DNA of 57,466 nt, from NCBI GenBank assembly GCA_038209745.1, contig JBBQXJ010000022.1:1-57466 (forward strand), in the 5' to 3' direction. This document shows positions 8,234 to 57,466 of this stretch, piece after piece. This stretch comes from Verrucomicrobiota bacterium (lineage in GTDB: Bacteria; Verrucomicrobiota; Verrucomicrobiia; Limisphaerales; CANJSG01). The notes under the pieces are model-generated. The model was not told the DNA's origin, searched no databases, and saw only the letters and a list, made by a program, of their open reading frames with translations. A program made the position numbers and the translations under genes. The number at the start of each line of letters is the position of its first letter. Within the stretch, counting starts at the first letter, position 1.

Positions 8234-11200
8234 TCAACGAGCCAACCTGAAGAACATCATGCTTCCCGTCGTGGAATTCGTGACCACGTTCTCTTCGCCA
8301 ATCACAACAGGGGCCGGATTGGTAATCGCCGACCAACCTTCTCCCCCGAGAACATCGGTGGCGGCTTCCAGGAGGAATCCTGTGGCCCAGGTCGGCCAAG
8401 TCACGATCGCGTCGGATCCGGAGGCGCTGATCTTCAGGGTCGGTTGTTCGATCTCGGAGCGGAGGTTCAAGATCCAGCCACCACCGATCCCACCCTGGTC
8501 GCCCGACGTATGGTCGTTCACGTAGAGTGACCAGACGCCATTGGCCTGGGTGCCATTGAAGTCCCAGAGATGGGTCGAGTAAGGGCCCGCAGGCGCCGGG
8601 GAAGGCAGATCCGCCGTCGCATCCCAATCGGCCGGGATGTAGGTCCCGCTCCGGAGGAATCCGCGCGGCACGGGGGCGCTGGCCGATGAGCGGAACGTCA
8701 GATTGAGACCCGACACGGAATTGCCGGCACCCGCATCGGACATCAGCATCACCTTTTTTCCATCCGGGCCGACCAGAAGCACGTCCACATCCTTGGGGAA
8801 GGAGTGGCTGAAACCGAGGAGCGTTACGGACACGTAGCCGATCGAGTTTGTCACCCCCGATACCGTGATCGTCGAAGGATACGGCGAGGCAGCTCCAAAT
8901 TGCGGGATGGAGATCGGGAGCGGATTCTCGGTAACACCCTCGGGCAGGCCCACCGTCGCGGAGGCTTGGGCGAAGTTGTTTGCCGAATTCGGGTCATTGT
9001 CCTGCGACGTCACACTGGCCGAATAGGAGAACGATCCCAGGATTGTCGGAACAGCGGTCACCTGCATGGAGGCGGACGACTTGAGCGGCATCGGTCCAAC
9101 AGACCAGATGATCTGGTTGCCGGACATCCTATACGTTCCGGTCGACACCGAGACAGATTGAACTCCCACGAGATCGGGAACGGTGTTTGTCACAAAGGCG
9201 GCGGTCGCATTGGTGGGTCCGATGTTGGTGACCAGGGTCGATACGATAAAGGCGTTATCTCGTTTGACCGATGCCGGCAACGCCAAGCTGACGGCCAGAT
9301 CGTTCACGAAATTGTTGCCCAAGAACACCTCCAGGCTCCATCCGCCGAGAATTTCGCCGGCATTGTCGCGAGCATGGTCCGCAACAAACAACTGCCAGGT
9401 TCCGTTCGGATCCACCCCGTTGAAAACCGCGAGTGATGTCGCGTAGGGCGGGGCCGGGGCGATGCCGCCGATCGTAGCGGTATGGACCCCGTAGTCCGTC
9501 GGCCGGTAGGTGCCATTGTTGATGGTCCCCAGCGGAATCACCGGACCGGAATCGTCGAACACAAGGTTCAAGCCACTGATCGATGTCCCGGGGCCCGCAC
9601 TCGACATGAGGATTACTTTTTGGCCAAGCGGCCCAACGAGAAGGATGTCAAGATCCCGGGCGTAGCCGTGGCTCAAGCGGTTGATGCGAACCACCACTTT
9701 GTTGACCACCCCGGACACTCCACTGATAGCCACGGTGGAAGGATAGGGATCCGACACGCCCATCGTCGGGATGAGGATCGCCGTCGGATTCGAAACAAAG
9801 CGGCTCCGGGAGGTCCCGGTGGCTACCACGTTGTTCTCGGGATACGAATCCAGCTCAAGCACCGCGTTTGTGAGGCTGGCTTGGGCGACTGTGACGATGT
9901 CAAGCGGCTGAATCACCTTGGCGATGACCTTGATCGTGGCCATGTCACCGACTTCCATAGCGCCAAGGGCGAAGGTCAAAACCTGCCCGTTGGTCGTGTA
10001 GGTCCCTTGGGAGGCACCGACCTTTTGCAGGCTCAGAGCCGGCGAGAGAGTCTCCGTCAGATTCACTGCGGAGGCGGGATTCGGTCCCCGGTTGGTCACC
10101 GAAATCGAATAGGTCACCAGCTCGTCCGGAAGCACGTTTTCAGGTGTCGCGGTCTGGGTGACTCCAATGTCGGCGACGTTGCGATTGCAGTAGGTGCGGC
10201 GATCCGTGAGCTTGATGCTCCATCCACCCCGGACGTAGCCTCCGCTCGATCCACCACCGAACCGGGAGGATCCCAAGCTGGTATAAAGGAGGAGGCGCCA
10301 TTCACCATTCGGATCTCCCTGGGCCAGCTCGGTCAGCGTCGAGACAAAGCGGGTCGGCAAGACGCCAGGGGGAAGGGTCGCAGGAATCTCGCCCGACAAG
10401 GCACCGGCACCGTTCGGCAGAAACGTCCCGTTGGCCAATCGAGCAATCTTGCCAGCAGCGCTGTCGCTGAAGGTGACGACATAGGTGTTGGTCGAAAAGA
10501 AGCCGCCTAGATTCTGGAACAGGATGACTCCCTGACCGCGGGAGTTCGCCAAGACACCCACCGCCTGCGACGGGACCTCGTGGAAGATGTTGCTCAAAGT
10601 GACGCTGACCCCGGTGACTCTGCCGATCTTTGGATCGGTTTCAAACCCGGAGACCTGCAGGGCCGAGGGGAATGGAAGAGCCGCACCATGGTTCACGAAG
10701 GTGATCTTTCCCGGATTCGCGAACGAGTAGGAATTGGTGAGCTGCAAACCCACAAACATCGGGAAGGACAAGATCCCCTTTTCGATGTCGCCGTCGGTGA
10801 TCTTGAACTGGACCACGAAGTTCGAGCCGCAGGGCGCGTCCGGGCTGACGATGAACGAGAAGCGGTTTGTTCCGGGGATTCCGTTGGTGGACAGCGCGCC
10901 GTAGTCCTTGCTTAGGGTGATCGGCGTCACGAAGGCGTTTGTGAGCATGGTCGCAACCACGTTTGTGGCGTCCAACAGACCCACGTTCTTGAACGAGAAG
11001 TCGAACGTCTCGGTTTCTCCCGAGTCGATGAACCCGTTGTTGAATCCGTTGGTTTCGGAGATGAACGTCGCGAAATCGGTGACGATGATCGGAATCGGCG
11101 ATTCATACATGTTGCAGGCGATGAGCGCGAAATCTTGATCAAGCGGGTCCATGTCGCCGGGGACGCCGTCGGAGTTGATGTTCGCAGCCGTCACAAAGAT

Positions 11201-13588
11201 GGCGACCTCGCCCTTCGTCCCGACCGGAAGAAAGACACTTTCAACGTTGTTGACCGCGTCCGGCGCGCCGTCGGGGGCCGAGAACTCGCCTTTGAAGACG
11301 TTTCCGAGATAGGGGACGCCATTTACGTAGACCTTGAGGTTCAGATCGTTGTTGTAGGCGGCGGCGACCGTGCTGCCGGGCGCATCGCTCCAAGCCAATG
11401 TCACCCGGAAAGGAAGGTTCGTATCCGTGATGTAGCCCGTGTAGAGCCGCCGCTGGCCGGTCGCGGTGAACTTGTTCGTAGAATCCTGGTCCTTGATCAC
11501 GCGATCCTTGTCCTCGAGCGCAGTGCCCAGATTGACCATGCCCATGCCCTGCTCATCGGACCAGAGATCGTCATTGGCGGCCTGGCCCCGCATGTAGCGG
11601 GCGCTGTTCATGATGATGGCTTTGGTGAGGGCCGGACTCGGCGCGTTGCTTCCTAGGTCGCGGAGATGCTGGTAGATCAAAGCGGCAGCGCCGGCGACAG
11701 CAGGCGTCGCCTGGCTTGTGCCCGAGCTGGCGGTGTAAAACTCCTGTCCGGCCGGGAAGAAGATGTTGGTCGCCAAGCCACCACTGACCCCGGAACCGTC
11801 GAAGCAGCTGATGGCCGTGCCGTTGGTGCCCACCTCCGGAGGACCCTGCTGCGCCACGCCGCCACTGATGTGGGTGCCGGGCGCCATGATGTCCGGCTTA
11901 TGGCGGCCGTCGGCCGTCGGACCGCGGCTGGAGAAGAAGACGACATCGTCCGCGTTGTCCGCGTCGAGATCGTCGATGCCGCTATTGTCGGCCCCGCCGA
12001 AGTTCTGGACGCCCTTTGACGCGCCCACGGTGATCACGTTTTTGGCTCCGCCCGGCGAGCCGACCGTTCCGAATTGGAATCCGGCGTTGCCGGCGGCGAA
12101 GACGATGATCATCCCCTGGTTTCCTTTCGTTGCGCCGGGCTTGGCGTCCCGGACCAGGGCGTCATATTCTTGGTCGTCGATCGAGTAGGTTCCCATGGTG
12201 TCCGCGCCCCAACTGTTGGCGGAAACGCGGGCCTTGTTGTCGTAGGCCGCGCCGATCAGCTTGGTGTAGTTCGGAAAGGTGAATTCCTTCGAGTCAAAGA
12301 TGACCGATGATCCGAGCAGGACGCTCGGGGCGACGCCCCGGCCGTAGAAAAAGTCGTCGGAATCCTGATACGGAAACCCGATCCGGTTAGTGACATAGGT
12401 CACGTTGGTGTCGGTCGCGTTGGTGACCATCATCACGAAAGGACCGGCCCAGCCGCCGATGATGTGCGCGTTGATGGTTCCGTGGCCGTCACAGCCCTGC
12501 AGCGTGGTGTTGGTGTTGGGGGTGCCGAAAAGTTGGTTATAAACGACGCGGCTTTTCATGGCCAGATCTCCGCCCGGATACAGGCCGAAGTGGCCCGGGG
12601 TCTGGGTGCCGTTGTCGATGCCGCTGTCCGTGACATCGACCGCGAAGTCGAAGAGCGCGGTGTTGGTGAAGCCCTTGGTGGCCAACCAGTCGTAGTAGTT
12701 GGTTTTCTGGGGAACGACCGGGCCGTTGGTGTCGATGTTGCCGGAAATGATCAACGACTGGCGCTCCCCGAGCATTTTGGGAACGACATATGGCATCACC
12801 GAGATGACCTCGGGGCGGGCGGCCAGGGCGGCGGCGGCGGCGGGGGTCATTGGTAGGGTCAGGTTGCGATAGTGGAGGACGACCGAATCGCGCAGCACGG
12901 GCCCGGTTCGGATCTGATCGACCAAGGCCATGGTGGCCAGATTAGCCGCAGGATCGTCCACCATCTGGACCGCGTAGTAGGGGGTGGCCGGCACCGGATC
13001 GCCCGCAGCCGTGCGTGCCATCGGCATCGAGCTCAACTTGTATGCCGACAAAAGCTCGCCCTGCCATTGGACCGGGGAGGCGGCTCCGGCGACGGCGGTC
13101 TGGCCGACACCGAACGAGGCGGGTTCTCCGTAGACCAAATACGTGTTCTCCGGAACGTAGGAGATGATCTGTCCGCCCCGATTGCGGATATCATCGGCCC
13201 ACGCCCCCTTGATCGGTCCGACAAACTGCACGAGGAACAATCGCTTGCCCGGTTCATTGCTCGAAGCGGCACGCGCCGCCAGTCGCGTTGAGGTGTCGAC
13301 AACCCCGGCGTTCAGCCGGATCAGGTGGGAATCGACGATTTCCTGGGCGCTTTTCGACGGATTGGGGGAAGCCGCATCGACTTCAATCAATTGGAAACCG
13401 CCGTAGTCCTCCACGACCCGTCCTCCGCTTCCGACCAGCTTGGCGGCCTCTGAAGAATCATCGACCTTGAGAAGCTTCTTTCCCGGCTCCGCAGCCTGCA
13501 TCCCTACGGCCAACTGGAACGTTGCAAGCACCCCCAGAAAGGCGACCACCAACCGAGGGCTGGTCCAACGAAGAACATTTCGGATCAT
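8234..13588 (-). CDS. Large secreted S8 (subtilisin, KP-43-like) serine protease with P-domains and DUF11 repeats
   Basis: Catalytic triad VTDSG / GHGT / SGTSQATP, oxyanion FAAGN; about three proprotein-convertase P-like domains (NGxWxL) alternating with two DUF11-like units (VTNxGP); 1784 aa. Confidence 0.92.
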   Translation of the reverse strand: MIRNVLRWTSPRLVVAFLGVLATFQLAVGMQAAEPGKKLLKVDDSSEAAKLVGSGGRVVEDYGGFQLIEVDAASPNPSKSAQEIVDSHLIRLNAGVVDTSTRLAARAASSNEPGKRLFLVQFVGPIKGAWADDIRNRGGQIISYVPENTYLVYGEPASFGVGQTAVAGAASPVQWQGELLSAYKLSSMPMARTAAGDPVPATPYYAVQMVDDPAANLATMALVDQIRTGPVLRDSVVLHYRNLTLPMTPAAAAALAARPEVISVMPYVVPKMLGERQSLIISGNIDTNGPVVPQKTNYYDWLATKGFTNTALFDFAVDVTDSGIDNGTQTPGHFGLYPGGDLAMKSRVVYNQLFGTPNTNTTLQGCDGHGTINAHIIGGWAGPFVMMVTNATDTNVTYVTNRIGFPYQDSDDFFYGRGVAPSVLLGSSVIFDSKEFTFPNYTKLIGAAYDNKARVSANSWGADTMGTYSIDDQEYDALVRDAKPGATKGNQGMIIVFAAGNAGFQFGTVGSPGGAKNVITVGASKGVQNFGGADNSGIDDLDADNADDVVFFSSRGPTADGRHKPDIMAPGTHISGGVAQQGPPEVGTNGTAISCFDGSGVSGGLATNIFFPAGQEFYTASSGTSQATPAVAGAAALIYQHLRDLGSNAPSPALTKAIIMNSARYMRGQAANDDLWSDEQGMGMVNLGTALEDKDRVIKDQDSTNKFTATGQRRLYTGYITDTNLPFRVTLAWSDAPGSTVAAAYNNDLNLKVYVNGVPYLGNVFKGEFSAPDGAPDAVNNVESVFLPVGTKGEVAIFVTAANINSDGVPGDMDPLDQDFALIACNMYESPIPIIVTDFATFISETNGFNNGFIDSGETETFDFSFKNVGLLDATNVVATMLTNAFVTPITLSKDYGALSTNGIPGTNRFSFIVSPDAPCGSNFVVQFKITDGDIEKGILSFPMFVGLQLTNSYSFANPGKITFVNHGAALPFPSALQVSGFETDPKIGRVTGVSVTLSNIFHEVPSQAVGVLANSRGQGVILFQNLGGFFSTNTYVVTFSDSAAGKIARLANGTFLPNGAGALSGEIPATLPPGVLPTRFVSTLTELAQGDPNGEWRLLLYTSLGSSRFGGGSSGGYVRGGWSIKLTDRRTYCNRNVADIGVTQTATPENVLPDELVTYSISVTNRGPNPASAVNLTETLSPALSLQKVGASQGTYTTNGQVLTFALGAMEVGDMATIKVIAKVIQPLDIVTVAQASLTNAVLELDSYPENNVVATGTSRSRFVSNPTAILIPTMGVSDPYPSTVAISGVSGVVNKVVVRINRLSHGYARDLDILLVGPLGQKVILMSSAGPGTSISGLNLVFDDSGPVIPLGTINNGTYRPTDYGVHTATIGGIAPAPPYATSLAVFNGVDPNGTWQLFVADHARDNAGEILGGWSLEVFLGNNFVNDLAVSLALPASVKRDNAFIVSTLVTNIGPTNATAAFVTNTVPDLVGVQSVSVSTGTYRMSGNQIIWSVGPMPLKSSASMQVTAVPTILGSFSYSASVTSQDNDPNSANNFAQASATVGLPEGVTENPLPISIPQFGAASPYPSTITVSGVTNSIGYVSVTLLGFSHSFPKDVDVLLVGPDGKKVMLMSDAGAGNSVSGLNLTFRSSASAPVPRGFLRSGTYIPADWDATADLPSPAPAGPYSTHLWDFNGTQANGVWSLYVNDHTSGDQGGIGGGWILNLRSEIEQPTLKISASGSDAIVTWPTWATGFLLEAATDVLGGEGWSAITNPAPVVIGEENVVTNSTTGSMMFFRLAR

Positions 13589-13925
13589 AAAAGCGTGAAG
13601 ACGACAGGGGTTACAACAGGATCGGAACCAGCAGCACCAGCTCCCAAGCCACAGTTCCTACTAATACGTTCCCCTGCGCCTTGGGCAAGGCACACAGAGA
13701 GATGGTCAGGCGGCTCGTTTCCACAAAGTTGACGCGTTCCTCAAGCGACCGGACGAGGTTGGCTTGGAGTTTGGTGATAGGGGTTCTAACGAAAACGCTT
13801 TTCCGTTGGCAAGGGAATAGACTTGTCCCTCGCACTGCCCGCTCATCCGACTCGGAGCGGGCCTTTCCTTTTGACGCCCCCCTGCCTTGCCTTTAGCGTC
13901 GCCACCCGCTCCACTGCGGACAGTT

Positions 13926-48488: not shown

Positions 48489-48610
48489 CCCGGCTGTCTA
48501 GGCAGCGCAGCCCGTCAATGCGAGCCAACAGATAATGCTTCCGGTCCAACCCGCCGGCCACAGCCGGAACGAGGCAGTGGGAACCTGCGTCCGAAGCGAG
48601 GCGGAGCCCC

Positions 48611-48742
48611 GTATTACGGGCATCCCTGCCCGTCACACCGAAGTCTGGCGGTAACCACTGACCGGTGAGCGCGTAGCACGATGGGCAACCCTGGGCTCTT
48701 GCCCCGCCCCACTGGGCAGGCTGGGAGCCGACCCTGCTTTGG
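48611..48742. repeat. Cluster of REP-like short palindromes
   Basis: ACGGGCA-TCCC-TGCCCGT (48616-48633); GTAG then GGGCAA...TTGCCC (48673-48704); GGGCAGGCTGGGAGCCGACCC. Confidence 0.5.
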
Positions 48743-48862
48743 ACTGCGTCGTTCCGGCTCAGACCGCGGTTGTCCCTCGCCTCCTCCCGTGGAAAGGGCG
48801 AACCGCTCGTCGCCGCAAAATCCCTCTCCCGCTTGGGTCCGCCAAGTCCCTCGAATAGTCTC

Positions 48863-48911: not shown

Positions 48912-48998
48912 GCCGACATGGCGGAATTGGCAGACGCGCTAGACTCAAAATCTTGTTCCCTTACGGGAGTGTGGGTTCGACCCCCTCTGTCGGCACCA
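48912..48998 (+). tRNA. tRNA-Leu(CAA)
   Basis: Acceptor GCCGACA/TGTCGGC, D loop GGAATTGGCAGAC, anticodon loop CTCAAAA, variable arm, TTCGA, encoded CCA; one U-U pair each in the anticodon and T stems. Confidence 0.95.
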
Positions 48999-49280
48999 AT
49001 TGGCTCTTCTCTGAACCTTGACCGCGAAGTTGTCGGTTTGTCCGGAATAGGGTGAAACACCACGAAGGAGAGCGCAGATCAACGACTTACGTTGGAAATC
49101 CATCCGGGCTCTTGTCCGGCTTTTCCGGGATCAGCCAATCTCGCGATTCCCTCACGTCCGCCAGAATCGACTACGCAAAGCATTGATGTTTCAACGTTGG
49201 AACTCGGCGTTTTCAAAATACCGACAGAATCGCAGTCACGAAAATGGGGGTGTAACGTGTAACGGGTGTTCCACCCCATT

Positions 49281-49577
49281 TCACCCGTTCTGCAAAGCCC
49301 CTGCACGCCGGCTGCGCTGATTCCGCATATGGGAAAACAGCCGACTTTGGAGGAAGCGGAGCCAGGCCTTGCGGGTCACCCGAGTTGCCGCCCGGCGCGA
49401 CCGGATGCCTTCGGCCAACGTCGCCTTCAGCGAGCCCTCGTCGATTAAATTCAAAAGGTGCCGTTCGCAGACCATGATCTTCTGCGACATCTCCTGAAGA
49501 GTGATCTTTGACCGTCCCGGAAAATCGAGGCTGGGATGGGCGGTCGCGAATTCCTCGATTGTCTCACGCTCTGCCAT
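49281..49577 (-). CDS. Excisionase-like (HTH_17-type) DNA-binding protein
   Basis: ITLQEMSQKIMVCERHLLNLIDEGSLKA...TRVTRKAWLRFL winged-HTH pattern; next to the putative att end. Confidence 0.7.
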   Translation of the reverse strand: MAERETIEEFATAHPSLDFPGRSKITLQEMSQKIMVCERHLLNLIDEGSLKATLAEGIRSRRAATRVTRKAWLRFLQSRLFSHMRNQRSRRAGALQNG

Positions 49578-49613
49578 GCCTGAAAGACTACCGCCGCGGT
49601 CAAGCCAACCGCC

Positions 49614-49648
49614 CCAAAGCAAAACGCCCCGGGGTTGCCGGGGCGTTT
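49614..49648 (-). terminator. Terminator ending the leftward operon, upstream of the xis-like gene
   Basis: AAACGCCCCGG-GGTTG-CCGGGGCGTTT with a T-rich tail on the minus strand. Confidence 0.7.
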
Positions 49649-49668
49649 GCCTTCCTTTATGTCCTGGG

Positions 49669-49863
49669 TCATTGACCGGCCACCGACCATTTCCAAACCA
49701 GCACGACCACACCGATCCAAAACACCGCGCACCCCGTCAACACCAGGACATTCCCCGGCTTTCTCACGTCCACCGCGCCCGGCTCGGGAAAACGGTGGAC
49801 GCAACGCGGGCAGGCCACCGCGTTGACCGCGAGCAACGCCCGACATGTGGGGCAAGTATTCAT
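49669..49863 (-). CDS. Small zinc-ribbon membrane protein
   Basis: CPTC-x10-CPRC plus a C-terminal TM helix; 64 aa. Confidence 0.65.
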   Translation of the reverse strand: MNTCPTCRALLAVNAVACPRCVHRFPEPGAVDVRKPGNVLVLTGCAVFWIGVVVLVWKWSVAGQ

Positions 49864-49899
49864 GAATCGATCACGCTTTGAAGCCAGGCCGGCAATGCT

Positions 49900-50409
49900 T
49901 CAGTTCCGCCCGGCGCAGAGCTTGGGCTCCATTCCAAGCAGGGTCTTGCCGTAGTCTGCCAGGCATCCGGACAGACGGCGGATCGCCCCCATCGGTGCGT
50001 CGTCCAGAGCCTCCCTCATCCACTGGCGGGGCGGCCCAAGTTGCCTTCGAGCCGCCACCAGAGCTTCATGCTTAAAGGAGCGCCAGGCATCCCGCTTTTC
50101 GGACCGGTCCTCCGCAACCTCCGCTTCCAGCACGGCCACATACCGACCGAGAGCTTCGCTGTTATACCGGCACACGGAAGCCCACCGTTGCAGGTCTTCG
50201 GCCGAGCTGCCCAGCAGCGCCTCTTCCATTGTCGGAACCAGCGTCGTCACCCGGAACCGCCCGCCCCCGCCGAGGCTGTCCGCCGGCCGGGCCATGTCTT
50301 TGAGCAGAGAGGGAAAACGCCGGGCGAATTCGGCGTGGATGCGGTTCATCTCCCCCACATTCCAGAGGTTCGCCCGCCCTGGATAACGAATCTCTTTCCG
50401 CGCCTTCAC
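49900..50409 (-). CDS. Hypothetical protein
   Basis: 169 aa; GTGA overlap with the upstream gene. Confidence 0.6.
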   Translation of the reverse strand: MKARKEIRYPGRANLWNVGEMNRIHAEFARRFPSLLKDMARPADSLGGGGRFRVTTLVPTMEEALLGSSAEDLQRWASVCRYNSEALGRYVAVLEAEVAEDRSEKRDAWRSFKHEALVAARRQLGPPRQWMREALDDAPMGAIRRLSGCLADYGKTLLGMEPKLCAGRN

Positions 50410-51335
50410 GCCGCCCTCCTTTCTTCCGCTTGGTTGGAGGAACGGAGACCTTGGATCGTCGCCAGCTCATCCCGCAGATGATACACGCTGGCCGCGTGGG
50501 CCAGCATCTGGTCCAGGAATTGGTCGAGGGCCGCATGGGCGTCGCTCACCATCTCGCAGTAGCCCGCCGCGAGGGTGCTCCCTTTTGGGTCGTTCTCTTC
50601 TTCGTAGCGTCCGGCGACTTCGGCGAGCAGATGCAGCAGCGCCTTGTTTTTGCGAAACTCCGTCTCGATCCAGGAACTGTCGATCCCTTGCCAATCTTCG
50701 CTCACTGCGAAGCGGAGGTTCTCCGGGACGAAGAAATCCACGAGCCAGGCGCGCGATTGCAGGCGGTTCATCGCGGCGGCCTTCGTGGTTGTGCCATCGT
50801 CGGTCAAGGTTAGGAGCCAATAAGTGTGGTCCCTGGCCTGCACAAGATCCTCGCCCAACACGGGGACGCCGGTGACCGACTCCCAACCATGCGACAGAAT
50901 ATGAGAGGAAGGCAGAGTCCGACGGAACGTCGCTTCGGGATCTGGGGCAAAGGCGCACGCTGCGTGTTCGGCGGTGTCCGGCGTGATGAGATGCCCGGCA
51001 TAGGTCTGCTCCAGGATCCAGTTGCGCGCTTCGTCCGGCGTGAGATGCCTCCACTCGATTCCATCCTCGCCGATCTGATCCTCCCTGAGCCAATGCTCCC
51101 CGTCCGTGGTCTGGCCAATGTCCGCAACGTCGCAGACGCAGTAGAATTCGCACCACCCGTTCTTCAGCGGATGCTCAGGGGGCAAGAGAACACCGGACGA
51201 AGCACTTCCCGCACCGTGCGGCAAGTGGGGATCTGGGGCAAAGGAACGCGCTGTTACATTGCTCTGCTTTTCGCGGGATTGCGCCGGCGCGGGCGTTGCT
51301 CTATTCCTTCTGGGGACTCGATTTGAGGGTTTCAT
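50406..51335 (-). CDS. Hypothetical protein with an internal tandem domain duplication
   Basis: Two FAPDP..LP..H.L..GW..D..Q..D..WL..DG..R.W units; likely start MKPSNR at 51335. Confidence 0.65.
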   Translation of the reverse strand: MKPSNRVPRRNRATPAPAQSREKQSNVTARSFAPDPHLPHGAGSASSGVLLPPEHPLKNGWCEFYCVCDVADIGQTTDGEHWLREDQIGEDGIEWRHLTPDEARNWILEQTYAGHLITPDTAEHAACAFAPDPEATFRRTLPSSHILSHGWESVTGVPVLGEDLVQARDHTYWLLTLTDDGTTTKAAAMNRLQSRAWLVDFFVPENLRFAVSEDWQGIDSSWIETEFRKNKALLHLLAEVAGRYEEENDPKGSTLAAGYCEMVSDAHAALDQFLDQMLAHAASVYHLRDELATIQGLRSSNQAEERRAA

Positions 51336-52314
51336 TGCTTTTGATCTTCTTGGTTCGGGTCTTCGGCCCGGTCGCTGTTTCAGCAGAGGCCGGGCTTTTT
51401 TGTTGTGTGGCTTCGGCTGCTTGGACCCATTCAAGCATCCGCAGAGCCGTGTCACCGCCAGGCTCGCGCTTGCCGGACAACCACACCGAGACGCTCGGCA
51501 GAGTTGCACCCAGAAAAGCAGCGAGTTCCGATTTCTTGCCGTGTTCCTCTGTGACTGCATTCAGACGGGCGAGGAGATTTGGAAGGGCCGGAAGCACGGC
51601 TTCACTGTTACCGTATGCGGTAACTGCTTGCAAAGGTAAATTTGGGGTTGTGGAAGTTTTTTCCCAGTCAGCGGGAGGCATGGTCATCAGATTGCGGATG
51701 GTGTCGACGGCGGCTTCGTAGATCCGGCGGGTGTAGGTTCTCCAGTAGAGAGGCTCCCGTGCGCCTTGGTTCCTGGCTTCGTTGTTCAACAGGATGATGT
51801 GTCGTTCGTGGAGTGCCTTGAGGTAGTTGACCGCCGTTTCCCAATGGTCGGCATCGGAGAGCTGGATGAGCTGATGGTGGGTGAATTTTCGGACAAGCTC
51901 CGCATAGCGGGGCGCCAGAACGGTCCGGTATGCCTCGCTGAAGAGCGTCCCTTCCCGGATGTGGCGCGTGGCTGGATCGGACCAAAGATCCATACACTGG
52001 CGCCTGGAAACAGGCCCATCGAATGCCTCGTCGTCGAATGGTCCTTTGGTGCCGCGCTCTTCAAGTGCCTGGTGAAACGCCTTGTGGCGTCCGGTAGCCA
52101 GCCATTCTTCTGAGATGATGAACTGGCGGCAGAACCGTAGCGCCACCTCGAACCGCAGAGGCGTCCGACACGCCTCGTAATTTGCGAGGGTGCTGCGCTC
52201 CAATCCGATCTGTGCCGCACAGGCCTTTTGTGCAAGCCCCAGAATGCTCTCACGGGCGTCCCGGAGTCGGCTGCCGATTACGGCGTCGATTTCGTCCAGC
52301 CTTGTCTTTCTCAT
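51301..52314 (-). CDS. XRE-family repressor with two HTH domains
   Basis: N-terminal IGSRLRDARE..LAQKACAAQIGLERSTLANYEA; C-terminal KKSELAAFLGATLPSVSVWLSGKREPG. Confidence 0.85.
   Translation of the reverse strand: MRKTRLDEIDAVIGSRLRDARESILGLAQKACAAQIGLERSTLANYEACRTPLRFEVALRFCRQFIISEEWLATGRHKAFHQALEERGTKGPFDDEAFDGPVSRRQCMDLWSDPATRHIREGTLFSEAYRTVLAPRYAELVRKFTHHQLIQLSDADHWETAVNYLKALHERHIILLNNEARNQGAREPLYWRTYTRRIYEAAVDTIRNLMTMPPADWEKTSTTPNLPLQAVTAYGNSEAVLPALPNLLARLNAVTEEHGKKSELAAFLGATLPSVSVWLSGKREPGGDTALRMLEWVQAAEATQQKSPASAETATGPKTRTKKIKSNETLKSSPQKE
51366..51401 (+). terminator. Antisense-oriented terminator inside the repressor 3' end
   Basis: GCCCGG...CCGGGC stem with inner GCTG/CAGC, followed by TTTTTT on the plus strand. 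Confidence 0.6.
51605..51633 (-). promoter_or_regulatory. Internal promoter and palindromic operator within the repressor ORF
   Basis: TTGCAA-17-TAACAG, 7 nt before the in-frame GTG at 51597; GTTACCG-TATG-CGGTAAC at 51607-51624. Confidence 0.55.
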
Positions 52315-52397
52315 TTAATGAAAGCTAAGCCGCACCGGAAGTGGTGGGAAAACCATTCTGTTGACAAGATGCACCCTGAATGGTTATCCATCTACCC
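52315..52397. promoter_or_regulatory. Divergent repressor/Cro switch region
   Basis: Rightward TTGACA-18-TATCCA; leftward TTCCCA-17-TAGCTT; inverted repeat AACCATTC (52351-52358) / GAATGGTT (52378-52385). Confidence 0.65.
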
Positions 52398-52592
52398 ATG
52401 CGACCCGCCGCACAACAACGCCGAGCCAGCCGGATTCCCGGCATCGTGGCCGATGCGGCCGCGTTGGGCGTCGACCGCGATCACCTCCGGCTTGTGCTCA
52501 CCGGTCGAAGGTCGTCTCGAAAGCTCTCCCAGGCCTACGCCGCACTGAAGGCGGCCCGGTCCGTCCCCGAACCCAACCCCCTCTCTCCATGA
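52398..52592 (+). CDS. Small Ner/Cro-like HTH protein
   Basis: GIVADAAALGVDRDHLRLVLTGRRSSRKL; 64 aa, basic, divergent from the repressor. Confidence 0.7.
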   Translation: MRPAAQQRRASRIPGIVADAAALGVDRDHLRLVLTGRRSSRKLSQAYAALKAARSVPEPNPLSP

Positions 52593-53113
52593 CCCTCCCA
52601 GAACTCCGCAAGATCCGCTCCGCCCACGACAGCTTCCGCACCGAGTGCGACGGCTGGGAGGGTGCCAAAGTCACCGCCGAGAAGGAGCTGGCCGTCCTGG
52701 TCCGCAAATGGGGCTTGGGCAGCTCCGACAAGGAGCTGGATCTCATCGGCCGTCTTCAGGTCAAGGCGGCTTTGCTTCCCGCCAAGATTGCGGACATGCA
52801 GTCGATCTTGGCGGAGCGCGAAACGGAACTGCGGGACGCCGTCCATCTGTTCATCCACAAGACCCTGAGCCCGTTGATCCAGGAACGGCTCGCCACGACC
52901 CGTGAGACGGTCCGCCTACGCCTGAAGGATTTGGTGACATCGCCCGAGATCTGGCTCGACCAGGAGATCGAGAAGAGCGCCCCCGTCCGCCAGCTCGTGA
53001 GCCTTTCCTTGGGCGCCACCACCGACCACGGAGACCGCTACCCGGCGGCCGTGCCCTACGCCGAAGCCATGATGAAGCTCTACAGCGAGGTCGAGTCGTT
53101 CCGCGTCAAGTGA
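52589..53113 (+). CDS. Hypothetical helical protein (paralog A)
   Basis: 174 aa; ATGA coupling to the Cro-like gene. Confidence 0.75.
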   Translation: MTLPELRKIRSAHDSFRTECDGWEGAKVTAEKELAVLVRKWGLGSSDKELDLIGRLQVKAALLPAKIADMQSILAERETELRDAVHLFIHKTLSPLIQERLATTRETVRLRLKDLVTSPEIWLDQEIEKSAPVRQLVSLSLGATTDHGDRYPAAVPYAEAMMKLYSEVESFRVK

Positions 53114-53135
53114 TCCACCCCCAAGCGATTCCCCT

Positions 53136-53564
53136 ATGAACCACCGCGAGCTGACCAATCTCCTGAACGACCGCAATGCCATTGCGGCCACGCTCACCCA
53201 GTCGCCCGAAGACCAAGCGGTTTTGGCGTCAAAAGACGCCGAGCTGGCGGCCGGTGTGAGCGCCTACTTGAATTCCACGCTCTCGCTTGAGATCCGTTTC
53301 AAACAGGAGGAAACCACCAGCGACTACGTGCGGAAGATCACGGCAGCCTTGCCCGGCGGCCTCAGTGCTTTGTCCCTCACGGAGCGCGCCGAAGCCGAAG
53401 CCGAGTTCAAGGCCATCGGTTCCAAGCCGGAAATGCAGACGCTGGCCGCGACCTCCGCCGCCGCAGACCCCGATGGAAGCGCCGCCTACGAATCCGCGGT
53501 GGCGTGGGCCGAAGCCCAGCTCGCGGCCGGCACCACCGTGGAAAATCTCACGGTCGAACTGTGA
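53136..53564 (+). CDS. Hypothetical helical protein (paralog B)
   Basis: 142 aa; similar to 52589..53113. Confidence 0.75.
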   Translation: MNHRELTNLLNDRNAIAATLTQSPEDQAVLASKDAELAAGVSAYLNSTLSLEIRFKQEETTSDYVRKITAALPGGLSALSLTERAEAEAEFKAIGSKPEMQTLAATSAAADPDGSAAYESAVAWAEAQLAAGTTVENLTVEL

Positions 53565-54277
53565 TGGGCACGCTTTCCAACCGCGCCCGCCAGATGATCG
53601 CCGACGGTCGCCGTCGGGACGGGCTTTCCTACGCGGAGAGCTGGCAGCGCGTCGCGCGCGCCTTGCCCGGAGACTTCGGGCTGCCCGAATCCGAGTCCTG
53701 TGCCATCTCGGCTTTGTGCAATCGGTTGCAGGTCGAGAGGGGTGGGAGCTTTGAAGAAAATTGGAACCTTGCCCAGGCCCAAGTCTACCTCAACGGCCGC
53801 TCCCAGCCGTCCCCCGATGCCTTGCTCATGAACCGGTCCTTCTCTCCCAGTGCCGACGGCTGGTTAGAATTGCTCAAGACCGGCGAGTTCCCCATTGCTG
53901 GTGGCCCGGTCCAGGTGATCGACGACCAGGCGTTGCGGGCGATGCTGGCCGCGTTTGATCGGGATCAAGCGCAGCCCAATTTCCCCGGACTGCTTCTCGA
54001 CTACGACCACCAGTCCTACGATGCCGCCAAGTCGTCCGAAGCCGCCGGATGGATCAATGATCTCCGTGTCGCGGGCGACACCCTGTTGGCCCGGCCCGAT
54101 TGGACCTCTTCCGGCGAAGCCGCCATTGCTGGAGGCCTGTTCCGCTTAGTCAGCCCCACCTTTCGCGCCGACCAGGTCGAGAAGCTGGGCAACAACCGAG
54201 TGCGACCGCTGCGGCTCGACAGTGTCGCCCTGACCAATTCGCCCAACATGCGCGGACTTGCGCCTCTTTCCCGATGA
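53564..54277 (+). CDS. Mu-like prohead protease (gpI family) with N-terminal helical repeats
   Basis: WLELLKTGEF, LLLDYDHQS, EAAGWI, WTSSGEAAI, LVSPTF, SVALTNSPNM: Mu-like_Pro motifs; TGATG coupling. Confidence 0.85.
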   Translation: MGTLSNRARQMIADGRRRDGLSYAESWQRVARALPGDFGLPESESCAISALCNRLQVERGGSFEENWNLAQAQVYLNGRSQPSPDALLMNRSFSPSADGWLELLKTGEFPIAGGPVQVIDDQALRAMLAAFDRDQAQPNFPGLLLDYDHQSYDAAKSSEAAGWINDLRVAGDTLLARPDWTSSGEAAIAGGLFRLVSPTFRADQVEKLGNNRVRPLRLDSVALTNSPNMRGLAPLSR

Positions 54278-54807
54278 CCGTTCCCCTCCCAGCCAATCTG
54301 CAGCACCGAGTTCATGATGCCTGGCGCAAGCTCTCGTCCGCCTTGGTTGGGACTATCCACCGCTACAACCGGATGAAGGCCGATCTGAACAAGCTGACCT
54401 TGGAAGAGAGCTTCGCAGAACAGGAGATGCAACTCCTCCATAGTGCGGAGAAAAACGGAGGTTCCTCACCTTTTATCACCGTGGCCAAGGCATCGGCGGT
54501 CGCGCGGTTGCAGACCCTGGCCGACGCCGGCGAGGCGCTGCGCCGGATGGAGCTGGCGGAATGCCGGAGCGTGCCAATTTCGGAGCTGCGCAGCCTGCTG
54601 CTGGAGATCGCCGAACACCGCGCCGCGCATCTGGCCTCGAACGGGCCGGCAACGCTCGGCGGGTTGGAGTGCTTGATCGAATTTCTTCGGGATCCGGCGA
54701 ACACCGAGCGGAACCTTGCCACCGACTACGCCACCCTTGAGATCCTCGGCAACGCACTGGGTGGCGCTGTGCAAATCCTGCCTGAAAAGGCCGTCACTGC
54801 TTCCTGA
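54274..54807 (+). CDS. Hypothetical helical protein
   Basis: 177 aa; ATGA coupling to the protease. Confidence 0.7.
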   Translation: MTVPLPANLQHRVHDAWRKLSSALVGTIHRYNRMKADLNKLTLEESFAEQEMQLLHSAEKNGGSSPFITVAKASAVARLQTLADAGEALRRMELAECRSVPISELRSLLLEIAEHRAAHLASNGPATLGGLECLIEFLRDPANTERNLATDYATLEILGNALGGAVQILPEKAVTAS

Positions 54808-54810
54808 GCC

Positions 54811-56553
54811 ATGGCCGACTTCGAGATCAAGATCACCACCCCGGCCGACCTGGCCGGCGCCAAGGGCACCGAGGAAAGCCTGAAGCGCCAGATTTCTCAA
54901 AAAAAACAGCTCAATGAGGAGTATGGGATTGAGGAGGCCCATCTCATTGCCCTGCAAAAGGCCCGCCGTTATTACGAGGAGACGCTCAAAACACCGGTCG
55001 CCCCGGCGTCTCCCGACAGCCCCGCGATCCCCAATGCGCCCGCCCCCACCGGCGGCGGCAATGCGGCGACCGACTTCCTGCGGAAGCAGTTCGCGGAAAA
55101 GCAAAAGCTCCAGCAGGAAGACCAAAAGCTGGACGAGGAAGGCGCCAAGAAGTCGATCGACTTGATCCATGGCCTCAAGGGCGCGCTCAAAGGGCTCGGC
55201 CGCGAGATCCCCGGCCTAGGCTTCCTCTCTGGCATCCTCTCCAGCCCCATCGCCCTGGGGTCGACGGCGCTGACGGTCGGGGTTGGGTCGGTTGTTTCAG
55301 AGGTCCAACGGCTCAATGCCGAGCTGAAGGAATTTAAGGCGCTCGGGGATGTCTTCCGTGGCAGCGGCCTCGCCCCATCACTCAAGGGGCTGCGCGAAGA
55401 TCTGCAAGCAGCCCGCGTGGAATCCGCCATCTGGCACGACCAGCTCAAGCGGGTGGCCGGGGCCTTTGCCGATGTCAACTCCCGCGCGGCCGAGGCGAAC
55501 AAGCTCCTCGCCGTCCAGGCCGCCGCCCTGGCCACGGTGGGCGAAGCCCAGGACTCATTGCTGAAGTCGGCCCTGGCCATCGCCAAAGCCCGAGGCCTCA
55601 TCAATGACGACGAGATCGCCCATCTGAACCGCATCCTCGCCCTGCACAAACAGATCACCGCCGCCCAGGACTCCGCCGGCGCCGAAGCCCACGCCATCGC
55701 CGAGAAACATGCCGCGCTCACCGCCGCCACCGGAGAGCTGCCCAAGCTCATCGCGGACCGCGACGCTCTGGCGGATAAACAGACCAAGGACAAGCAACGC
55801 TCCAAGGCCATTGCGGAGAAACTCGCCGAGGCCGAAGCCGCAACCACGGTCAGGCTGGTGGACGGCAAGCCCGTCTTCTCGCCCCAGGAGCAGGCGCTCA
55901 ACGATCAGGCCGCCATAATTCAGGGCAGTGGCACAGGGAAAGACGCCAAATCTGGACGGTTCCCCGAACTGGTGGGCACATCCAAAGCCGAGCGGGATGC
56001 CATCCGGGAAAGATTAAAAGCCGGTGACAAAATCAATTTTGAGACGGGTGTCAAATTTGGAGCCGCCGAACTCGACGAATTCGAGCAGATGCAGGCGCAA
56101 TTCGATGAGAACCGAAGAAAACTGAACGCTAAACGTGCGTCCATCCCGGGCCTCCGCGCCGAGCTGGAACAGACGGACAAACGGATCGGCATCCGCGCCA
56201 CCGATCTCGGCGAATTCGATGCCCGCATCGGTGCGCGCAAGCAACAGCGCGACACTCTCCCGGGTGAGATCGCCTCGGATACGGCCGCCTTCGCCGCCAA
56301 TGATGAGAGGCGCAGCCGCTCCGTCGGGCTGGGCCGACGGCAGTTCGGGCTGGAAGAGTCCATGGCGGCCCTCAATCAGCTCAAGGATGGGGCCGATGAA
56401 GCCACCACCGCCCGCGTGAATTCCCAGCTCTTGGCTTTAACCAAAGAGCTGATCTCCATCCAACTCTCAGACCGCCGGGAGAACAAAACCACGGCCGCTG
56501 AGGTGGCCGCACTGCGGAAACAGGTCTCGGTCCAACGCCCCTACAGCTACTAG
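54811..56553 (+). CDS. Tape-measure-like coiled-coil protein
   Basis: N-terminus MADFEIKITTPADLAGAK; Ala/Glu/Lys-rich coiled coil with a Gly-rich hydrophobic segment (IPGLGFLSGILSSPIALGSTALTVGVGSVV); 580 aa. Confidence 0.6.
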   Translation: MADFEIKITTPADLAGAKGTEESLKRQISQKKQLNEEYGIEEAHLIALQKARRYYEETLKTPVAPASPDSPAIPNAPAPTGGGNAATDFLRKQFAEKQKLQQEDQKLDEEGAKKSIDLIHGLKGALKGLGREIPGLGFLSGILSSPIALGSTALTVGVGSVVSEVQRLNAELKEFKALGDVFRGSGLAPSLKGLREDLQAARVESAIWHDQLKRVAGAFADVNSRAAEANKLLAVQAAALATVGEAQDSLLKSALAIAKARGLINDDEIAHLNRILALHKQITAAQDSAGAEAHAIAEKHAALTAATGELPKLIADRDALADKQTKDKQRSKAIAEKLAEAEAATTVRLVDGKPVFSPQEQALNDQAAIIQGSGTGKDAKSGRFPELVGTSKAERDAIRERLKAGDKINFETGVKFGAAELDEFEQMQAQFDENRRKLNAKRASIPGLRAELEQTDKRIGIRATDLGEFDARIGARKQQRDTLPGEIASDTAAFAANDERRSRSVGLGRRQFGLEESMAALNQLKDGADEATTARVNSQLLALTKELISIQLSDRRENKTTAAEVAALRKQVSVQRPYSY

Positions 56554-56735
56554 CGATGCCCACCAAACCCTCCAGGACGGTCCCGGAGCCCGCGAGGGGT
56601 GTCCACACCCCGCTTTGCGATCAAAGACGAAATGCAAGGGCACCACGGTGTTTTGCAAGAGGTCTGGGCAAGCGCGTCGGACTCCACTTTTTCAATTTGG
56701 TAGCCATCCGGACAGGAGCAATCGTTTGCGCTACC

Positions 56736-56779
56736 GGCTGGGCGGGTCTGTGTGGGACTCGCCCGGCCCTCACTTTTTT
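56736..56779 (+). terminator. Terminator after the rightward operon
   Basis: 14-bp stem GGCTGGGCGGGTCT/GGACTCGCCCGGCC (with GU pairs) followed by CTCACTTTTTT. Confidence 0.65.
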
Positions 56780-56928
56780 GCCGGTCCTTTTTCTGAATTT
56801 CAGTCTCGCGAGTGGCGGCTCGGTGACTGGATGGGATGCTGAACCCCGGGAGCAGTATCCCCCCGTCGGTGATCCATGCGGGTCACCGACGGGCCTTCCA
56901 TCTCCTGGAACATCGACCCACACACCCG

Positions 56929-57466
56929 ATGAACTCCACCGCCACCCAACCCGCCCGCGCCTTGCTCCAACTCCAGACATTCAATGACGCCTGCCACCGG
57001 GGACTCCCGGTCAAAGAGGCCGCCCGTCTCGCTGGCATCAGCCATCCGACCGCGTACCGCCTCCGCCAGCGCTTCAAAGCCGACGGCCTCGCCGGTCTGA
57101 ACTATCGCACCCCCCGTCCGCGACTTCCCCAGGCGCTCGCTCAGTTCGGCCTGAGCCAGGCCACAGCAGCCCTCTTGCAAAACCACCGCCTCGACTCTGC
57201 CGACGCCCGCGCAGCGATTAGAAAGGCGATAAAGAACCCTCGCTGTCGAGCCGCCGAAGCTCGGCTGTTGACTCCCTATGGGCGCGGCCGCTTGCCGATG
57301 CCTGATGTGTTGGAGCGCCTGCTCGCGCATCGGTGGCCGAAGAGGGGTAGGAAAGCAGGAGCGCATGAGGGAGGAGAACGAGCCAGGAAGAGCGTTCCGC
57401 GCGTCGTGTTGAGCGGGGTCGCCGGGAGGTTGTTTTCTTGGGAAAACCCCGCGAACGCCCGTATAA
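56929..57466 (+). CDS. HTH protein resembling a transposase N-terminal DNA-binding domain (open to window end)
   Basis: Hand translation MNSTATQPARALLQLQTFNDACHRGLPVKEAARLAGISHPTAYRLRQRFKADGLAGL...; no stop in the window, so absent from the ORF track. Confidence 0.7.
   Translation, partial: MNSTATQPARALLQLQTFNDACHRGLPVKEAARLAGISHPTAYRLRQRFKADGLAGLNYRTPRPRLPQALAQFGLSQATAALLQNHRLDSADARAAIRKAIKNPRCRAAEARLLTPYGRGRLPMPDVLERLLAHRWPKRGRKAGAHEGGERARKSVPRVVLSGVAGRLFSWENPANARI

Follow-up and report, generated by a model that had tools for sequence, protein, structure and literature searches.

A tRNA-adjoining island in a Verrucomicrobiota genome and its family of transposase-bearing elements, probably a new kind of phage satellite

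Known satellites and transposing elements, and the family of the island

To our knowledge, all well-described families of phage satellites integrate by means of site-specific recombinases. Laboratory mini-Mu elements, which are engineered deletions of phage Mu, consist of the Mu ends and transposition genes, carry no virion genes and depend on a helper for packaging. The satellite families named in the part of the published catalogue used here are P4-like, PICI, cfPICI and PLE (PMC10085698). The nearest precedent for homing by transposition to tRNA genes is the CRISPR-associated transposon (CAST) I-D, for which the portion of the source drawn on here describes TnsD-guided insertion 30-33 nt behind a tRNA-Leu gene (PMC10293859). 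The subject of our analysis is an island of 8.3 kb that directly follows a tRNA-Leu gene at the end of a 57,466-nt stretch of DNA from a Verrucomicrobiota bacterium (GenBank assembly GCA_038209745.1, contig JBBQXJ010000022.1; hereafter the window), and that an earlier note had read as a candidate tRNA-integrated satellite built from Mu-like phage parts. With a probability of roughly 60%, we consider this island to be the part next to the tRNA, 8.3 kb in length, of a transposable element from a family whose members measure 11-15.5 kb and would be moved by a transposase and packaged as satellites by helper phages. The membership of the island in this family is well supported by sequence comparison, and the family probably represents phage satellites of a kind not described before; its predicted structures, ends and placement suggest movement by a Mu/Tn7-type machinery with a preference for sites just behind tRNA genes, and packaging by a helper phage is presumed.

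Homologues of the repressor, ner, X1, protease, helix-turn-helix (HTH), 580-aa and xis-like genes of the island were found at matching positions and in matching order in relatives (X1, X2 and 'REP' are our own profile labels). In five genomes (G773, G639, G715, G595 and G714) a gene of the 580-aa family adjoins genes for an 800-922-aa transposase and a 542-566-aa ATPase, which match phrog_310 (E values of 1e-18 to 1e-29) and phrog_296, respectively; it lies upstream of the pair in the first four genomes and after the ATPase gene in G714, and the same loci hold homologues of the repressor, Ner-like, X1 and xis-like genes of the window. A layout like that of the window is also present on an Akkermansia contig (L006), where a repressor faces an operon with a protease and a 549-aa coiled-coil protein, an HTH gene is likewise found, and the last, truncated open reading frame (ORF) represents the N-terminus of the family transposase. 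The earlier note had suggested looking for the gene order in other genomes, and the family layout of repressor, ner/X1, large protein, transposase and ATPase was present in 20 of 20 further loci, with the large protein behind or between the transposase and ATPase genes in four of them. The locus L127 comes nearest to the window in its layout (X1, protease, a 145-aa ORF, portal, HTH, transposase and ATPase). The transposase-ATPase pair was present in all 25 relatives whose locus extends that far, and the insertion sequence (IS) that splits the HTH gene of the window lies just upstream of the position expected for the transposase gene. Elements of the family are bounded at 11-15.5 kb (by coordinates, the end of the tRNA and that of the ATPase gene are 11.3-15.4 kb apart), and host genes stand directly after the ATPase gene, namely cyclophilin and cas genes in G715, Hcp and toxin-antitoxin genes in G639 and hydrolase genes in G773.

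The family transposase had no match in Pfam, NCBIfam or the sequences of the PDB. An AlphaFold model of the L085 transposase (pLDDT 68.6, from a six-sequence alignment) found its best match in the Mu transpososome 4fcy (E value 7e-13), followed by TnsB of Tn7 and CAST, and aligned to the Mu core domain 1bcm with a TM score of 0.63. Likewise, the best solved relative of the ATPase profile was MuB of phage Mu (8xvb, E value 3e-7), followed by TnsC. A profile built from six transposase sequences and applied at an E value of 1e-30 or lower matched 70 of the 401 genomes of the order, distributed over 46 of its 166 genera; the genome of the window is among the 331 without a match, and the transposition genes of the window copy may be either unassembled or deleted.

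Our analysis of the element ends also connects the window with its relatives. The probable left terminal region of the island (49012..49125, plus strand) starts with the word TGAACC at 49012, which is +14 counted from the tRNA end; then come TTGTCCGGAAT (49038-49048), the conserved CAAnGAnTTACG block in the vicinity of 49094 and finally TTGTCCGG (49112-49119). The order of these words is kept at the tRNA-side ends of relatives, inverted copies of the words lie about 100 nt past the ATPase gene of the relatives, and TTGTCCGGAAT together with the CAAnGAnTTACG block can be aligned with the left ends of G773, G639 and G715 in a four-way alignment that includes the window. The 8-mer TTGTCCGG is not enriched in the window (5 observed versus 2.9 expected), and for this reason the case for the left end is based on placement and alignment. 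Terminal inverted repeats were found in G715, G773 and G639 as well as in L115, L117, L118 and L119; in the latter four an inverted copy of the stretch at about +22 to +35 lies approximately 70-110 nt behind the ATPase stop codon. By eye, a TGAGTC-like word is seen 11-17 nt after the tRNA end in seven of the ten tRNA-adjoining further loci, TGAACC being its counterpart in the window; a TTGTnC(G/A)GAAT word comes next at about +31 to +41, its place in the window being 49038-49048.

In those ten loci, half of the 20, the tRNA gene abuts the repressor-side end and is transcribed in the same direction as the transposase gene. These genes are those for Leu-GAG, Leu-CAA, Leu-TAG, Val-TAC, Val-GAC (three loci), Glu and Arg (two loci). 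When the window (Leu-CAA), G773 (Val) and G639 (Asp) are included, a tRNA gene was found at 13 of 24 inspected left sides. In approximately half of the copies a tRNA gene ends within about 11-40 nt before the repressor-side end, with the orientation always the same, and the left-end words of the window fall 13-40 nt behind the end of its tRNA-Leu gene. The premise of the earlier note that Mu-type elements do not target tRNAs accordingly does not hold for this family. An empty-site comparison attempted for G773 was discarded, as the flanking hydrolase gene occurs in two relatives without a tRNA gene beside it.

The family is rated as mixing features of transposable phages, Tn7-like transposons and satellites. 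With phage Mu and Mu-like phages such as B3 and D3112, its elements share a divergent repressor/Ner-type switch at one end, a transposase of the MuA fold (4fcy), an ATPase nearest to MuB, the PF10123 protease, and ends that begin with TG-containing repeated words. In contrast to these phages, the elements measure 11-15.5 kb instead of about 37 kb, have no matches to large terminase, tail tube, sheath or baseplate, carry the transposition genes at the far end of the operon rather than directly after ner, are inserted beside tRNA genes rather than nearly at random, and encode a transposase that neither Pfam nor NCBIfam recognises. With the Tn7-like CAST I-D and I-B2, which home behind tRNA genes according to the part of the source used (PMC10293859), they have in common a TnsB-fold transposase, a TnsC-like ATPase, insertion in a single orientation a few tens of nt behind a tRNA gene, and several repeated end words. 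They differ from what is described there in having no TnsA, TniQ/TnsD or CRISPR matches in Pfam (a divergent selector is possible), in turning the repressor end rather than the transposase-gene end towards the tRNA, and in carrying a phage repressor/Ner switch together with virion genes.

Similar parallels and differences emerge for satellites. The cf-PICIs, on the portion of their description considered here (10.1101/2025.02.11.637232), resemble the family in being small chromosomal elements. Some members of the family (L117 and L118) likewise encode their own portal, protease and capsid but no tail. However, the family would move by a DDE transposase and ATPase instead of an integrase, neither a small terminase nor a primase could be recognised in it, and many of its members, including that of the window, carry only a protease and/or a tape-measure-like gene. 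As far as the catalogue part used here goes (PMC10085698), P4-like elements, PICIs and PLEs share with the family a reduced set of morphogenesis genes, a site by a tRNA gene and a repressor-controlled operon; the integrase, AlpA, primase-replicase, Sid/Psu and CpmAB-type genes were, in contrast, not recognised here by Pfam, PHROG or NCBIfam, and the host phylum differs. Unlike the mini-Mu elements, the family is natural, conserved over 46 genera, arranged in another gene order and tRNA-homing. Our literature search, which did not extend to subscription journals and supplements, found no description of satellites with Mu-type transposition, of transposase-bearing satellites or of this family.

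Virion genes and the satellite reading

The virion genes of the family were surveyed by PHROG scans of 76 internal proteins of at least 190 aa and by Pfam scans of 97 internal proteins of at least 95 aa from 10 tRNA-bounded elements. A virion-gene match was obtained in 15 of the 20 loci (14 by PHROG, the protease of L127 also by our own profile). The genes comprise an HK97-type capsid (8 loci), a portal (4 loci), an S78-type protease (5 loci), a Mu-type protease (2 loci, or 3 with our own profile), Neck1 (1 locus) and, as the large protein before the transposase gene, that is at the position of the 580-aa gene, a tape measure (6 loci); RadC was matched in 5 loci. Sets of portal, protease and capsid occur in L117 and L118, and protease, capsid, Neck1 and tape measure occur together in L126. 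Integrase, recombinase, terminase, TniQ, tube, sheath and baseplate had no match in these scans, no TnsA match was found among the 97 internal proteins (Pfam), and neither a small nor a large terminase nor a pac function was recognised in the elements. The lack of a full virion set holds for the bounded relatives and, for the window, over the visible 8.3 kb, where the only virion-type genes are a scaffold-less protease and the 580-aa protein. As a separate observation, a RadC-like JAB-domain gene recurs in L112, L117, L118, L122, L130 and L006, on the repressor side in some and as the first rightward gene in others.

The elements are read as satellites because they combine an inducible-looking switch with partial virion modules and lack large terminase and tail-body genes. 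From the earlier note's satellite claim, a family of small, bounded, tRNA-adjoining elements with few virion genes can thus be retained, in contrast to the integration by an integrase at a tRNA 3' end: no integrase was found among the 85 and 97 proteins of the relatives' loci and elements (Pfam), and neither the tyrosine integrase nor the duplicated tRNA 3' end that had been expected came to light, a second copy of the tRNA-Leu 3' half being absent elsewhere in the 4.58-Mb genome. In the mechanism that we propose, transposase and ATPase would insert the element beside tRNA genes under the guidance of a target selector, and the repressor/Ner switch would keep it silent until induction. It would then spread in the virions of a helper phage, and the protease, portal, capsid or tape-measure-like proteins that it encodes would build or remodel these particles; spread through helper virions is proposed because the elements are without large terminase and tail-body genes. 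More tentatively, and at somewhat short of even odds, we suggest that these elements form a new satellite class common in one Verrucomicrobiota order (70 of 401 genomes), which uses a transposase-ATPase pair in place of an integrase, homes to tRNA genes and contributes a set of capsid, portal, protease and tape-measure-like genes, varying from copy to copy, for building or re-tooling helper particles, the window copy being a protease plus tape-measure-like variant.

If this is true, satellites transposing by Mu/Tn7-type machinery would represent a new way for phage parasites to persist and spread, and would connect the evolution of transposable phages with that of Tn7-like transposons and satellites. 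Homing to many different tRNA genes, for which neither a TniQ/TnsD protein nor a guide RNA was recognised, points to an unrecognised target selector, with a possible use in site-directed DNA insertion. In addition, two proteins, the scaffold-less protease of the Mu type and the tape-measure-like one, are candidates for redirecting or sabotaging the head and tail assembly of a helper, and the family is common in a phylum that has received little study, its transposase being missed by current Pfam and NCBIfam models.

Contrary observations and alternative explanations

Several observations weigh against the satellite reading. For the window copy itself, transposase and ATPase genes were not found, as there was neither a phrog_310 match nor a tblastn match in the whole genome bin. 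The 20 further loci were chosen by us among high-scoring transposase matches on contigs with room around them and are not a random draw, and the genes were called by our own heuristic, based on the GC content at third codon positions (GC3). The exact terminal base and the target-site duplication were not confidently readable, a 4-bp CTAT in G639 being too short to count. No tRNA gene was present at the left end in 10 of the 20 further loci, one of which offers only 4 kb upstream of the transposase gene, or in G715. Moreover, the Mu-like helper prophage for which the earlier note had suggested a search in the same genome was not found; Mu portal, gpT, phrog_1005 capsid and Terminase_6C were all without a match there, and a Mu-type portal elsewhere in the genome was present in only two of five element-bearing genomes. 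Checks of reads for an excision joint and of viral sequences for copies were negative as well. In three sediment runs of one study, probably from the source sample and analysed at contig level, read depth over the island was even and low (about 5-8, equal to the 6.8 of the flank), and no excision joint or amplification was seen in these runs; the few joints listed from other runs, with sides of 20-23 letters, were given no weight. An IMG/VR scan with a close homologue of the 580-aa protein yielded nothing, and an IMG/VR scan with the transposase profile yielded no member, only two remote relatives with 29-30% identity on contigs of 24-35 kb. Likewise, the 580-aa protein and the transposase of one relative had no match in 50,697 GenBank phage records.

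The main rival explanation, which we regard as unlikely, is that the family consists of autonomous tRNA-homing transposons of the Tn7/Mu superfamily that are never packaged and whose phage-derived genes are cargo, either poisoning the assembly of phage heads and tails as an anti-phage function or serving the cell in another way. It draws on the MuA/TnsB- and MuB/TnsC-like proteins and the homing beside tRNA genes, which resemble CAST I-D as presented in the source portion cited above (PMC10293859), on the missing terminases and pac function, on the variation of the virion gene set from copy to copy, and on tail-assembly blockers borne by satellites and prophages, of which the part of the source used here gives published examples (PMC11364771). 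However, the coherent gene sets of L117, L118 and L126 look made for particle building, inducible phage-like elements typically have a repressor/Ner switch, and the absence of TnsA and TniQ matches likewise speaks against such a transposon.

A second explanation, compatible with either view of the family and in our estimation quite improbable, concerns only the window copy, which could be a dead remnant whose transposition genes were removed or silenced by IS insertion or IS-mediated deletion and whose remaining genes decay neutrally. This would be in line with the splitting of the HTH gene by the IS, with the absence of transposase and ATPase genes from a bin that is 92% complete and with the absence of the Mu-type protease from six other genomes of the same genus. 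In addition, none of the nine opposite IS ends carries the 9-bp target duplication that would make it the partner of the IS end on the window, and such duplications matched for only two of nine IS-end pairs overall. Against a remnant, all other ORFs are open, translationally coupled and of coding-type GC3, homologues of the 580-aa protein with 76% and 74% identity are found elsewhere, and the missing piece could be unbinned, contigs below 3.2 kb being absent from the bin.

A third reading is very unlikely, namely that the island forms the left end of a prophage of ordinary, full size (35-40 kb), transposable or integrating, whose structural module would follow past the contig end. The contig does stop inside the element, one member of the 580-aa family is encoded in the late region of G734, a full Mu-like prophage from the same order, and Mu-type proteases, found in 81 of 401 genomes of the phylum including that of the window, normally belong to full head modules. 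In contrast, the relatives with the order of repressor, ner, X1 and large protein all stop directly behind the ATPase gene, the rest of the genome showed no capsid, portal or large terminase, and the G734 genome has no transposase-profile match at an E value of 1e-30 or lower. Finally, a P4- or PICI-like satellite integrated in the 3' end of tRNA-Leu, with a tyrosine integrase at its far end, is hardly credible, as the position directly after the tRNA, the xis-like gene and an ORF read by eye only as integrase-like behind the same tRNA-Leu in two same-genus genomes are opposed by the absence of a tRNA 3' end repeat from the genome, by integrase matches of the genome none of which (0 of 8) lies near matching IS ends or beside island-like genes, and by relatives that have transposition genes and inverted ends but no integrase.

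Gene content of the window copy and further observations

The arrangement that the earlier note described after tRNA-Leu, a leftward repressor operon, a divergent 70-aa gene and a coupled rightward operon, is present. The tRNA-Leu(CAA) gene itself (48912..48998, plus strand; ARAGORN, Rfam tRNA 50.3 bits) adjoins the repressor-side end of the element and is not a split attachment site. GC3 of the island genes is 0.65-0.79, compared with about 0.85 in the flanking upstream host genes, and no paralogues of island genes were found elsewhere in the genome. The 13 window ORFs scanned gave no capsid, portal, terminase or tail-tube match, in agreement with the earlier note, nor did the window ORFs give an integrase match in Pfam. 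The further statement that the ORFs are intact and coupled applies with the exception of the last island gene, which is cut by the IS.

The leftward operon (minus strand) spans 49281-52314, with an XRE/HTH_3 repressor at its end. Nearest to the tRNA is a gene for a putative xis-like small DNA-binding protein (49281..49712), with an ORF of 143 aa and a likely start at a Met that gives about 98 aa; it has no match of its own in Pfam, PHROG or NCBIfam, and its designation is based on position and on homologues in relatives, which BLASTP found in L052, L053, L054 and L082, those of L054 and L082 matching HTH_17. It is followed by genes for a 64-aa zinc-ribbon protein with a hydrophobic tail (49669..49863; UPF0547 at an E value of 6.5e-5, below the Pfam cut-off), for a 169-aa protein with coding-like GC3 of 0.75 but no family match (49900..50409), and for a protein without family match called from the ORF list and GC3 (50406..51560; ORF of 384 aa, likely 309 aa from the Met at 51335). 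The repressor (51301..52314) has 337 aa and an N-terminal XRE-type HTH (HTH_3, E value 2e-8 in Pfam) and matches PHROG repressor families. Two-domain repressor homologues occupy the equivalent place in L079 (41%/55% identity), L085, L081 and L082, and our REP profile matches 16 of the 20 further loci.

On the plus strand, the divergent gene 52380..52592 encodes a 70-aa protein that we consider Ner/Cro-like from its position and its homologues at the equivalent position in L085, L079 and L087; it has no match of its own in Pfam, PHROG or NCBIfam, and our profile of it matches 8 of the 20 further loci. The terms xis-like and Ner-like of the earlier note are therefore kept for position and homologues, not for matches in these libraries. 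The rightward operon extends over 52589-56553, its genes being joined by 4-base ATGA or 1-base overlaps or separated by 3-22 bases. It begins with X1 (52589..53113), a helical protein of about 174 aa encoded by a conserved early gene of the family and identified by phmmer, profile and position: phmmer paired it with a 172-aa gene of G715, a profile of five other members matched it at an E value of 4e-4, and X1 follows ner in relatives too, in a helical alignment with 18-23% identity to the window copy. The next gene encodes a 142-aa protein with GC3 of 0.79 and no family match (53136..53564).

The Mu-type prohead protease (53564..54277, 237 aa) named in the earlier note was confirmed by PF10123 (Mu-like_Pro, E value 3.4e-20, 73.3 bits against a Pfam cut-off of 25.2) and by phrog_328 (E value 8e-23). 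Its first 85 residues form a unique N-terminal extension, the protease domain follows at residues of about 86-237, and all conserved protease columns are kept in a 16-sequence alignment. Whereas typical relatives have 320-380 aa including a scaffold half, the window protein stops where the protease domain ends and has no C-terminal scaffold part, the match covering profile positions 23-133 of 330. Among database proteins, the scaffold-less form was found otherwise only in P0002, from another Verrucomicrobiota bin. In a quick tree the window protease, P0002 and L006 fall into an unresolved group with 88% support, and L054 stands apart on a long branch; the protease gene follows X1 also in L006, L122, L127 and L130. 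The start of the next gene (54274..54807) overlaps the protease stop by ATGA, and its 177-aa product, without family match, stands in the scaffold position and has a putative scaffold role.

The 580-aa coiled-coil protein (54811..56553) has a conserved 58-aa N-terminus and a Gly-rich hydrophobic segment at residues of about 133-163. The earlier note had called it tape-measure-like, which is in line with its build, its position and its weak language-model neighbours, tape-measure fragments with scores of 0.90-0.91, but not with any family assignment, as Pfam, PHROG and NCBIfam gave neither a family nor a tape-measure match. It has only two close homologues (76% and 74% identity), and 12 other genomes of the order have its 58-residue N-terminal motif. 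At its position, L054 and six of the 20 loci (L112, L116, L123, L126, L129 and L131) have a gene that matches tape-measure PHROGs; a profile of 11 members of the 580-aa family reached neither the positional analogue of L054 nor that of L006. Because the family also occurs in the late region of the G734 prophage and on short contigs, where it is followed by another large-protein family, the 580-aa protein is assigned to the virion module by context. Scans of genome, metagenome and viral contigs for the context of the closest homologues (P0080, P0081 and P0002) found nothing, and a cluster look-up gave no context.

After a gap of 375 bases follows the small HTH gene (56929..57326), the product of which has an IS481/IS630-like N-terminal HTH (HTH_29, HTH_23 and HTH_28 matches) and which the IS cuts about 30 codons before its stop. 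Full-length homologues are stand-alone proteins of 154-197 aa, the nearest, P0084 (57% identity), aligning up to residue 134 of 164; the HTH profile matches a 247-aa gene of L006, and a homologue stands directly 5' of the transposase gene in L127. The left end of the IS (57327..57466, plus strand) is the cause of the contig end, 139-140 of its bases being identical at eight other contig ends (C4, C61, C69, C80, C83, C90, C113 and C116). An opposite IS end with a related inverted terminus was found at nine other contig ends, all on contigs with host-like genes, so that the IS is present in about nine copies, with 9-bp target duplications; its imperfect inverted termini begin with CATCGGTGGCCGAAG and CATCGGCGTCCGAAG. 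No continuation of the element was found among the contigs of the bin, and a near-copy of the end word on C125, considered as a far end, lies inside a host membrane-protease gene and is a chance match. Apart from this IS, at least five other families of repeats, in groups of 26, 9, 9, 8 and 8 contig ends, explain much of the fragmentation of the bin, in which the window is the whole of one contig (C22) among 140.

In an attempt to locate the far boundary by synteny, same-genus genomes were found to have tRNA-Leu in another context, and their neighbour genes map to scattered contigs of this bin. The orthologous tRNA-Leu(CAA) genes of L065-L068 (from G003-G006, of the same genus) stand in a different gene neighbourhood. 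In G003 and G006 the ORF directly after tRNA-Leu has a start that was read as integrase-like by eye only; if this ORF is truly an integrase, the tRNA-Leu gene would be a repeated landing site for differing mobile elements in the genus. Just upstream of tRNA-Leu, a stretch of about 200 bp (48561-48779) recurs at 76-87% identity on C24, C85, C118, C21 and C20 and partly in other same-genus genomes; it has no Rfam match and may represent a small repeated element, or else a regulatory or RNA region that these places have in common. In the Rfam scan of the window the tRNA alone was above threshold, and a sub-threshold twister-sister ribozyme match inside the 580-aa gene (55819-55910, plus strand; 27.6 bits against a gathering score of 34, E value 0.012) is most likely due to chance.

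Elsewhere in the phylum, the usual Mu-type head module has the order portal, F, protease, a gene of about 140 aa and capsid. The premise of the earlier note that the protease directly precedes the capsid gene is not generally valid here, as an ORF of 565-815 aa intervenes in five of the 20 ordinary head modules fetched. In these modules (L041, L043, L047, L048 and L050) a protease ORF of 497-802 aa is followed by the long ORF, which has a staphylococcal-nuclease domain in two cases; the long intervening ORFs may encode effector proteins packaged in the head. The closed 3.9-Mb genome G243 contains four Mu-type head modules (L037-L040; portal, F, protease, about 140 aa, capsid) with nearly identical proteases, which suggests a multi-copy transposable prophage. 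Finally, a closed Verrucomicrobiae chromosome (OY760937.1, L004) carries at 8737-13720 an isolated cluster of six genes, for 410 aa, a Mu-type protease-scaffold, 132 aa, a capsid-sized protein of 306 aa, 278 aa and 97 aa, with host-looking flanks by our gene calls and no terminase or tail genes within 10 kb, which may represent another kind of capsid-only island.

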